Assembly: GCF_055900595.2 (NCBI RefSeq)
Contig: NZ_CM148325.1
DNA length: 64,000 nucleotides
Direction: 5' to 3' (one strand)
Made by a program: the position numbers. This document shows, one piece after another, positions 24,001 through 27,000 of the stretch. Within the stretch, counting starts at the first letter, position 1. Every line of letters begins with the position of its first letter.

Positions 24001-27000
24001 TCAGGCATTGGATCAAGCGCAAATGACAAAATGATGTAAGCAACCAGGGTAAACAGCGCCAGACCGAAGAAAATCGACAGCACCACCAGGATACGCGCCA
24101 GTTTTACCGGTACATCAAAATAGTTGGCAATCCCGGCGCAGACGCCGCGTACCATGCCCCGCTGTGGAATACGCCATAATTTTTTATTGAGATTAATGCC
24201 CGCCATTAGCGATCCCTCCAGTTCGGATGTTCTGCATCAAGAATGGATTCCAGCGCCTGAATACGTTCGCGCATCCGTTTTGCTTCATCAGCCAGTTGCG
24301 CTAATCGCTGCTGCTCACTTTGCGACAATTCACCGCGACCGGAACGATTGCTGTAATGCAGCCATAACCAGATCGGTAAAACAAACAGCACAAAAATGGT
24401 TAACGGAATAGCCAGAAATAGCGCGCTCATAAGTACTCCTTAGACGATGAGCGGCGGCGCGTTCAGACGCCGCCAGGATGTTATTATTGATTGTCTTGCT
24501 TCATTTTGGCTTTTAATTGTGCCAGTTGCTCGCTGATTGCATCATCGGCTTTCAGTTCGGCAAACTGATCGTCCAGCGATTTTTGTTTACCGAAGCTGTG
24601 GCTTTCTGCTTCCGCTTCCATCTGGTCAATTCGACGTTCGAAAGATTCGAAACGAGCCATTGCTTCATCCAGTTTGCCACTGTCCAGCTGACGACGCACA
24701 TCGCGCGACGAGTTTGCCGCCTGATGGCGTAACATCAATGCCTGCTGGCGAGCGCGTGTTTCACTCAATTTGTTTTCCAGCTCGCCGATCTCTTTCTTCA
24801 TACGCACCAGCGTATCGTCCACCAGCGTCACTTCATGTTCCAGGCTCTTAATCAGATCGGTCAGTTTCTGTTTTTCAATTAACGCCGCACGCGCCAGATC
24901 TTCTCTCTCTTTCAGCAGCGCCAGTTCGGCTTTTTCCTGCCATTCAACTTCACGCGCCGACGCTTGTTCAATACGGCGAGTCAGCTGTTTCTTTTCTGCC
25001 AGCGCACGCGCCGAAGTAGAACGTACTTCAACCAGTGTATCTTCCATCTCCTGGATCATCAGACGCACCAGTTTCTGTGGATCTTCCGCTTTCTCTAACA
25101 GAGCGTTGATGTTGGCATTCACGATGTCGGCAAAGCGAGAAAAAATACCCATAATGTTGTCCTCTTGATTTCTGCGTTCAGGATTGTCCTGCTGAACTAT
25201 TAATACAATTTGCGTGCCAATTTTTTATCTTTTTGATTTATAAAGATCTGATTGAAGAATCAACAGCAACATGCCAGGATGAGTTAGCGAATTACACTAA
25301 CAAGTGGCGAATTTCATCATGGCAGAATACAAAGATAATTTACTCGGTGAGGCGAACAGCTTTCTCGAAGTGCTGGAACAGGTTTCGCATCTCGCACCGC
25401 TGGACAAACCGGTGCTCATCATCGGCGAGCGCGGCACAGGTAAAGAGCTGATTGCCAGCCGTCTGCATTATCTCTCCTCCCGTTGGCAGGGGCCGTTTAT
25501 TTCCCTTAACTGCGCGGCGTTAAATGAAAATCTGCTGGATTCCGAACTGTTTGGTCACGAAGCGGGCGCGTTTACCGGTGCGCAAAAACGTCATCCAGGG
25601 AGATTTGAACGTGCCGACGGCGGTACGCTATTTCTTGATGAACTCGCTACGGCACCGATGATGGTACAGGAGAAATTATTGCGCGTGATTGAGTACGGTG
25701 AACTGGAGCGCGTTGGCGGCAGCCAGCCATTGCAGGTGAATGTGCGGTTGGTATGCGCGACGAATGCCGATCTCCCGGCGATGGTCAATGAAGGGACTTT
25801 TCGCGCTGACCTGCTCGACCGGCTGGCTTTCGATGTAGTGCAACTGCCGCCCCTGCGCGAGCGCGAAAGCGACATTATGCTGATGGCAGAACACTTTGCC
25901 ATTCAGATGTGTCGGGAAATCAAGCTGCCTCTGTTCCCGGGTTTTACCGAGCGCGCCAGAGAAACATTGCTGAATTATCGCTGGCCGGGAAATATTCGTG
26001 AATTGAAAAACGTGGTGGAACGTTCGGTGTATCGCCACGGCACCAGCGATTATCCGCTTGATGACATCATTATTGATCCCTTTAAACGGCGTCCACCTGA
26101 AGAACCCATCGCCGTTCCAGAAAACACTTCACTTCCGACGCTGCCACTGGATTTACGTGAGTTTCAGATGCAGCAGGAAAAAGAGTTGCTGCTACTCAGT
26201 TTGCAACAAGGGAAATATAACCAGAAGCGCGCGGCTGAATTACTGGGGTTAACCTATCATCAGTTCCGCGCGTTGTTGAAAAAGCACCAGATTTAGCGAA
26301 GTTGGGCAATACAACTTGCCGGATGCGGCGTGAACGCCTTATCCGGCATACATAATCAATACGTCGTTTGCAGGCCTGATAAGCGCAGCGCATCAGACAT
26401 TATTGCGTTGGGCTATTAATCGCTCAGCGCATCCTGCAATATTTTCATTGCCGCATCGAATTGCGCATCCGGGATGGTCAGCGGGTACAGGAAACGAATC
26501 ACGTTGCCGTATGCGCCACAGGTCAGCAGGAGCAGCCCCTGCGCCAGCGCGCGTTGCTGGATTTTCTGTGCAATCGCCGCTGACGGCTCGCCCGTTTGCG
26601 GATCGTTAAACTCTGCCGCAATCATCGACCCCAGACCGCGTACCGCCGCGATGGCCGGAACGCTTTCTTTGGCATCAATCAACGTATTTGTCAGACGCTG
26701 GCCCAGTTGATTAGCGCGTTCACAGAGTGATTCTTTGTCGATAATGTTGAGCACCGCGTGCGCGGCAGCCACCGCCAGCGGGTTCCCGGCGTAGGTACCA
26801 CCAAGCCCGCCCGGCGCGGGCGCGTCCATGATATTCGCGTTACCGACCACGCCCGAAAGCGGCATCCCGCCCGCGAGGCTTTTCGCCATCGTCATTAAGT
26901 CCGGCTTATCGGCGTAGTGATCCATGGCAAACAGTTTACCGGTACGCGCAAAGCCGCTTTGCACTTCATCGGCAATCATCACAATACCGTGCTCGTCGCA

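Follow-up and report, generated by a model that had tools for sequence, protein, structure and literature searches.

The window, by which is meant the whole 64-kb stretch of DNA analyzed here, is a segment of the E. coli chromosome in which the psp locus lies in the orientation opposite to that of K-12. The minus strand carries, in order, ycjM, pspE, pspD, pspC, pspB, and pspA, and the plus strand carries pspF followed by puuE and puuB; this synteny (puuE-pspF / pspABCDE-ycjM) equals the gene order of NC_000913. The psp genes are:

23228-23542, minus strand: pspE, above the NCBIfam equivalog cut-off, K-12 length
23617-23838, minus strand: pspD, above the NCBIfam equivalog cut-off, K-12 length
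23847-24206, minus strand: pspC, above the NCBIfam equivalog cut-off, K-12 length
24206-24430, minus strand: pspB, above the NCBIfam equivalog cut-off, K-12 length
24484-25152, minus strand: pspA, first gene of the operon, 222 aa (NCBIfam equivalog NF007974, 443 bits vs. a cut-off of 336)
25319-26296, plus strand: pspF, σ54 enhancer-binding activator, 325 aa (NCBIfam equivalog NF008622, 677 bits vs. a cut-off of 529)

Positions 25153-25318 coincide exactly with the 166-bp spacer that separates the start codons of pspA (25152, minus strand) and pspF (25319, plus strand), and the two genes diverge from it as the first-pass annotation had described. A GTG at 25304, which a mechanical ORF list gives as the start of pspF (330 aa), was rejected in favor of the ATG at 25319 where the start is placed both in the annotation of K-12 and by NCBIfam alignment (residues 1–325); it is with the ATG at 25319 as start that the spacer measures 166 bp and that the distal PspF-type site described below overlaps the true start codon. 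The annotation of pspF is also supported by RefSeq genomes that are 100% identical over 24400-26400. PspF has the K-12 length, the GAFTGA loop, and the Walker A motif; it carries 6 substitutions relative to K-12, four of them clustered at residues 262–269 (D262E, A263P, S267P, T269N), outside the AAA+ core. PspA, over its 222 aa, carries one. All six genes, pspF and pspABCDE, are full length and without internal stops, with 0–6 substitutions each relative to K-12. The earlier statement that the psp regulon is intact holds for these six genes, all of them above their cut-offs, and for these only, pspG being ~2.9 Mb distant in K-12 and outside the 64-kb window; the psp locus found here implies that the encoded membrane-stress response is structurally intact.

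The spacer between pspF and puuE (26297-26415) contains two REP-like units, the first of them the palindromic GCCGGATGCGGCGTGAACGCCTTATCCGGC, together with an IHF-like core, AATCAATACG; this is a repeat of the BIME/RIB type, and it accounts for the median of 12 BLAST places per genome returned for the 2-kb query. Cores similar to AATCAATACG occur at 6988, 50850, and 55755.

Within the pspA/pspF spacer, the following features were located on the minus strand, with positions in parentheses relative to the predicted pspA transcription start:

25153-25192: remainder of the pspA 5′ leader after +1, with the Shine-Dalgarno sequence GAGGA at 25160-25164
25179-25191 (+3 to +15 of the predicted transcript): small 5′-proximal stem-loop, CAGGA-caa-TCCTG, minimum free energy (MFE) −5.3 kcal/mol
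25193 (+1, A): predicted pspA transcription start, 41 nt upstream of the ATG
25199 (about −6): T where K-12 has C, by alignment the sole difference in the spacer
25204-25220: σ54 −24/−12 core promoter of pspA, TTGGCACGCAAATTGTA, same as K-12
25226-25238 (−45 to −33): IHF-like core AATCAAAAAGATA, one mismatch to WATCAANNNNTTR, then an A-tract as far as the −24 element
25241-25253 (−60 to −48): weaker second match to the IHF consensus, AATCAGATCTTTA, with one mismatch and only partial conservation
25285-25300 (−107 to −92): promoter-proximal candidate PspF-type enhancer TTAGTGTAATTCGCTA, a conserved block
25305-25321 (−128 to −112): promoter-distal candidate PspF-type enhancer, near-palindrome ATGATGAAATTCGCCA, the best-conserved block, overlapping the pspF start codon

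The core promoter is a single exact match in the 64 kb, and it lies within the spacer, on the strand and at the position appropriate for pspA, where the first-pass annotation had put it. The GG at 25217-25218 corresponds to −25/−24 and the GT at 25205-25206 to −13/−12; GG and the G of the −12 region are ten bases apart (GG-N10-G), which is the spacing of σ54 promoters, and the element has one mismatch to TGGCAC-N5-TTGCW. The transcription start was predicted by the convention of Bonocora et al. (PMC4591121), in which +1 lies 19 bp downstream from the motif's midpoint, and its 41-nt distance to pspA is the same as the value tabulated there. The consensus C of the −12 "GC" is absent, the base being T. 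The word "textbook," applied to this promoter beforehand, is therefore apt for its standing as a model system but not for its sequence, since a promoter with GT rather than GC at −12 is no consensus promoter. Comparison with the published pspA promoter, also recommended beforehand, identified the 17-mer as the σ54 ChIP-seq site OS15 upstream of K-12 pspA (Bonocora et al., 2015, PMC4591121, Table 1). OS15 has a fold-above-threshold value of 21 and is flagged "C," that is, experimentally confirmed in EcoCyc, and overexpression of σ54 raises K-12 pspA expression 2^4.9-fold (PMC4591121). Because 5 of the 42 K-12 σ54-bound intergenic sites lack GC, the identical pspA sequence among them, a T at −12 is compatible with membership in the σ54 class. 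From the K-12 ChIP-seq signal on an identical sequence we infer that the 17-mer would be occupied by σ54 in the present strain as well, and the gene for the cognate AAA+ activator, pspF, adjoins pspA divergently.

Alignment with the K-12 pspA promoter had been named as the test that could overturn the promoter call. The spacer is identical to that of K-12 MG1655 (NC_000913.3) at 165 of 166 bases, the −24/−12 element is identical, and the one differing base lies outside the element. With K-12 pspAp and its PspF enhancer and IHF site, the region shares the locus, the gene order, the 17-mer, and the 41-nt distance from start to ATG; it differs in having T where K-12 has C at about −6 and in the 6 substitutions in PspF. 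Counted with allele-specific 41-mers, designed so that the 28-base megablast word cannot span the SNP, exact matches number 714 complete E. coli genomes for the T allele at 25199 and 4,495 for the C allele of K-12. The T is a common, standing natural polymorphism, in an alignment column that varies freely between genera. These observations bear on the suggestion that the promoter is present but that T at −6 alters its behavior relative to K-12, e.g., through easier melting of −10 to −1 and more basal or bypass transcription: position −6 sits in the segment that melts on open-complex formation, the C-to-T change lowers local duplex stability, and bypass transcription is known to depend on sequence around −12 (PMC4551910), but such an effect is quite unlikely given the many genomes that carry the allele, the lack of conservation of the position between genera, and the finding that pspA shows no clear bypass under standard growth even with Region I-deleted σ54 (PMC4551910).

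Of 5,426 complete E. coli genomes, 5,419 contain the spacer, and every sampled match is at least 97.6% identical. The 6,971-bp alignment of the locus to K-12 is collinear and 96.1% identical (flanking genes ~96–99%), and the spacer is better conserved than its mostly coding flanks (1/166 vs. 274/6971 differences; binomial P = 0.010), which is consistent with dense, overlapping regulatory sites. Over the 2-kb stretch 24400-26400, only 11 of ~5,400 complete E. coli genomes reach 99% identity, the others falling at 95–99%; the window therefore comes from an uncommon lineage or has a divergent allele of the psp region.

The regulatory layout was compared across species by using a degenerate DNA pattern for the PspA N-terminus, which retrieved at least 120 pspA loci, belonging to Enterobacterales, Vibrionaceae, Shewanella, and Pseudoalteromonas. 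In 108 of these, pspF is divergent from pspA across spacers of ~160–330 bp (one outlier, 533 bp); the other 12 end too close to pspA for the orientation of pspF to be told. Among the gammaproteobacterial loci listed, the 114 with enough upstream sequence include 111 with a strong −24/−12 match 56–133 bp upstream of the pspA ATG, a score that shuffled sequences reach in 66 of 2,280 trials. Footprint alignment of 26 Enterobacteriaceae/Erwiniaceae spacers yielded five conserved blocks: two PspF-type near-palindromes, an IHF-like core, the −24/−12 element, and the Shine-Dalgarno sequence. TGGCA and TG of the core promoter are invariant in these 26, as is the Shine-Dalgarno GAGGA (26/26). The IHF-like block, AAATCAAAAAGATAAAAA (25222-25238, minus strand), has an AATCAA core that forms the one-mismatch IHF match, and its ATCAA and A-tract are invariant or nearly so across genera. 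As the IHF consensus has 65 matches in the window vs. 54 expected, candidate IHF sites are weak when taken alone.

The two PspF-type sites share a 10-nt direct repeat at 20-bp spacing, i.e., two helical turns, and to judge by sequence both fall within the distance (~80–150 bp upstream of the start) typical of enhancers. A palindrome derived from the two blocks, TGGTGAANTTCACCA, matches 25305-25319 with 2 mismatches and has one match upstream of K-12 pspG, where 0.09 would be expected. According to Mehta et al. (2013, PMC3709507), PspF binds two UAS's at pspA and a single one at pspG, an arrangement matched by the two PspF-type sites at pspA and the one palindrome match at pspG. The upstream scan for IHF and PspF sites that the first-pass annotation had suggested therefore produced putative sites of both types. 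Activation of pspA is IHF-dependent or IHF-assisted (PMC3709507, PMC2709558), and IHF-dependent negative autoregulation of σ70-driven pspF operates through the shared region (PMC3709507); a consensus scan of the plus strand within the spacer gave no candidate for the σ70 promoter of pspF.

Overlap of the distal PspF-type site with the pspF start codon, together with the autoregulation described for these sites (PMC3709507), could be taken to mean that the conserved blocks beside pspF are mainly pspF operators or promoter elements, concerned with σ70 transcription and autorepression rather than with enhancement of pspA. This is very unlikely as an alternative to shared control: the same sites are described in both roles (PMC3709507), so that the operator function complements the enhancer function, and a matching PspF-type site is found upstream of pspG, where no pspF adjoins. 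The K-12 pspG promoter resembles that of pspA in other respects, with TGGCA-N6-TTGTA (T instead of C at −12), an IHF-consensus sequence, AATCAATAGATTA, 17 nt before its TGGCAT (the IHF-like AATCAA core being 17–19 nt before TGGCA), and the PspF-type palindrome upstream; unlike the pspA promoter, it has a single enhancer site and lacks a neighboring pspF. The nifH, glnHp2, and Pu promoters likewise have an enhancer ~100 bp upstream, an IHF bend between the enhancer and −24, and an obligatory AAA+ activator (PMC2709558), whereas PspF lacks a sensory domain and is regulated by the anti-activator PspA.

None of the three motif types (σ54 consensus, IHF consensus, and PspF palindrome) is enriched in the window. 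TGGCAC-N5-TTGCW has 2 matches with up to one mismatch vs. 3.66 expected, and 43 with up to two mismatches vs. 46 expected. With counts near chance, each element alone is statistically weak, and the case is comparative rather than statistical: the pspA promoter stands above chance because of the 165/166 identity of the spacer to K-12 and the conservation of the motif upstream of pspA in 111 of the 114 species listed. The other one-mismatch σ54 match, TGGCACGGCGTTTGCG at 39871-39886 (minus strand), is antisense within a 330-aa ORF (39478-40470, plus strand), and the K-12 σ54 ChIP-seq tables have no site in that coordinate range; as an intragenic, antisense match at a chance-level hit count, it was set aside as a second σ54 site. 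The σ54 ChIP site upstream of topA is absent from the window. That the pspA motif itself arose by chance and does not act as a promoter in this genome, as the chance frequency of such matches and the intragenic example might prompt one to ask, has a negligible probability and is effectively refuted by the match of the whole spacer to an experimentally characterized K-12 promoter, the σ54 occupancy of an identical 17-mer (PMC4591121), the correct position and strand for pspA, and the conservation across species.

The interval 25153-25318 is thus almost certainly the control region that the divergently transcribed pspF and pspABCDE units of E. coli share, with σ54, PspF, and IHF acting on it. 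No observation made here speaks against this reading, which draws on observed identity to K-12, intact genes, and cross-species conservation, and on the literature for σ54 occupancy, dependence on PspF and IHF, and autoregulation; by analogy, the present strain would be expected to behave like K-12. By the mechanism established in K-12, RNA polymerase with σ54 would form a closed complex on 25204-25220 that is unable to open alone. PspF would bind the two palindromic enhancers ~92–128 bp upstream, of which the distal one covers the pspF start codon. Bending by IHF at the AT-rich site just upstream of −24 would carry the PspF hexamer over to the polymerase, and PspF would then open the promoter by hydrolyzing ATP. 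PspA, encoded first in the operon, would bind PspF and so keep the system off until membrane stress frees PspF. Since the PspF sites overlap the pspF start, PspF bound at the shared sites would be expected to repress pspF as well. The feature is already known, as had been acknowledged from the outset, and its value lies mainly in anchoring the annotation of this genome, where it fixes on which strand the psp locus lies, at which codons its genes start, and how its regulatory elements are arranged. The modest by-products of the analysis are the rarity of C at −12, a PspF palindrome that can be derived from sequence alone, and a family-specific leader hairpin.

Most E. coli σ54 promoters, unlike that of pspA, have the consensus GC at −12 (37 of 42 intergenic, gene-oriented K-12 sites); pspA, pspG, ygeW, and hydN are the four of the 42 with G followed by a base other than C. 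C is found at −12 in 38/40 non-psp E. coli σ54 sites, and both E. coli PspF-dependent promoters, pspA and pspG, read TTGTA. Across the promoters of 111 pspA orthologues among the gammaproteobacterial loci listed, the −12 base is most often A (48) or T (39), less often G (17), and only rarely C (7), although the scoring favored C or T, and the counts are of species rather than of independent events. Non-C at −12 as a conserved psp trait was not found stated in the literature searched, primary psp promoter papers excepted. The Buck laboratory notes that the −12 TGCA/GC region carries the repressive fork-junction contact and that altering it leads to more activator-bypass transcription (PMC4551910).

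The second trait concerns the leader. In the window, 1.3% of shuffled sequences fold as well as the 5′-proximal stem-loop of the predicted pspA transcript. Each of the 18 distinct leaders from Enterobacteriaceae folds into a 5′-proximal stem of 4–6 bp; the stems comprise ~7 different sequences, and the mean MFE of these leaders is −6.1 kcal/mol vs. −2.6 for shuffles; the 84 leaders of other families show no folding excess (−1.6 vs. −1.4 for shuffles). RNAalifold returned no consensus for the leaders because stem registers differ by 1–2 nt between genera, and the claim is accordingly one of hairpin conservation rather than of strict column-wise covariation. A 5′-terminal stem-loop can protect mRNA from 5′-end-dependent decay, and it is plausible by analogy that the pspA leader hairpin stabilizes its mRNA in this way. 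A family-specific hairpin in the pspA leader was not found stated in the literature searched, again excepting primary psp promoter papers. For 25100-25400, Rfam gave no match even with the threshold at E ≤ 1; across the window, just one Rfam match exceeds the gathering score, the Hfq-binding sRNA STnc490 at 14845-14968 on the minus strand (146 bits, E = 6e-30).

Taken together, these two traits raise the tentative and rather doubtful proposal that pspA-type promoters are a distinct σ54 sub-class in which selection acts against C at −12, and to which Enterobacteriaceae have added a 5′-terminal hairpin that stabilizes the burst of pspA mRNA. If this were true, a base other than C would weaken the repressive fork-junction contact at −12, which would suit an activator that is always competent as an ATPase and restrained only by PspA.

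A direct repeat, TTGTCCTCTTGA / TTGTCCTGCTGA, is found at 25157-25168 and 25184-25195 (read on the minus strand as TCAAGAGGACAA / TCAGCAGGACAA). The leader hairpin has a 5′ arm similar to the Shine-Dalgarno region, so that its 3′ arm, TCCTG, might instead pair with part of the Shine-Dalgarno sequence; this leader/Shine-Dalgarno repeat is not conserved outside Escherichia.
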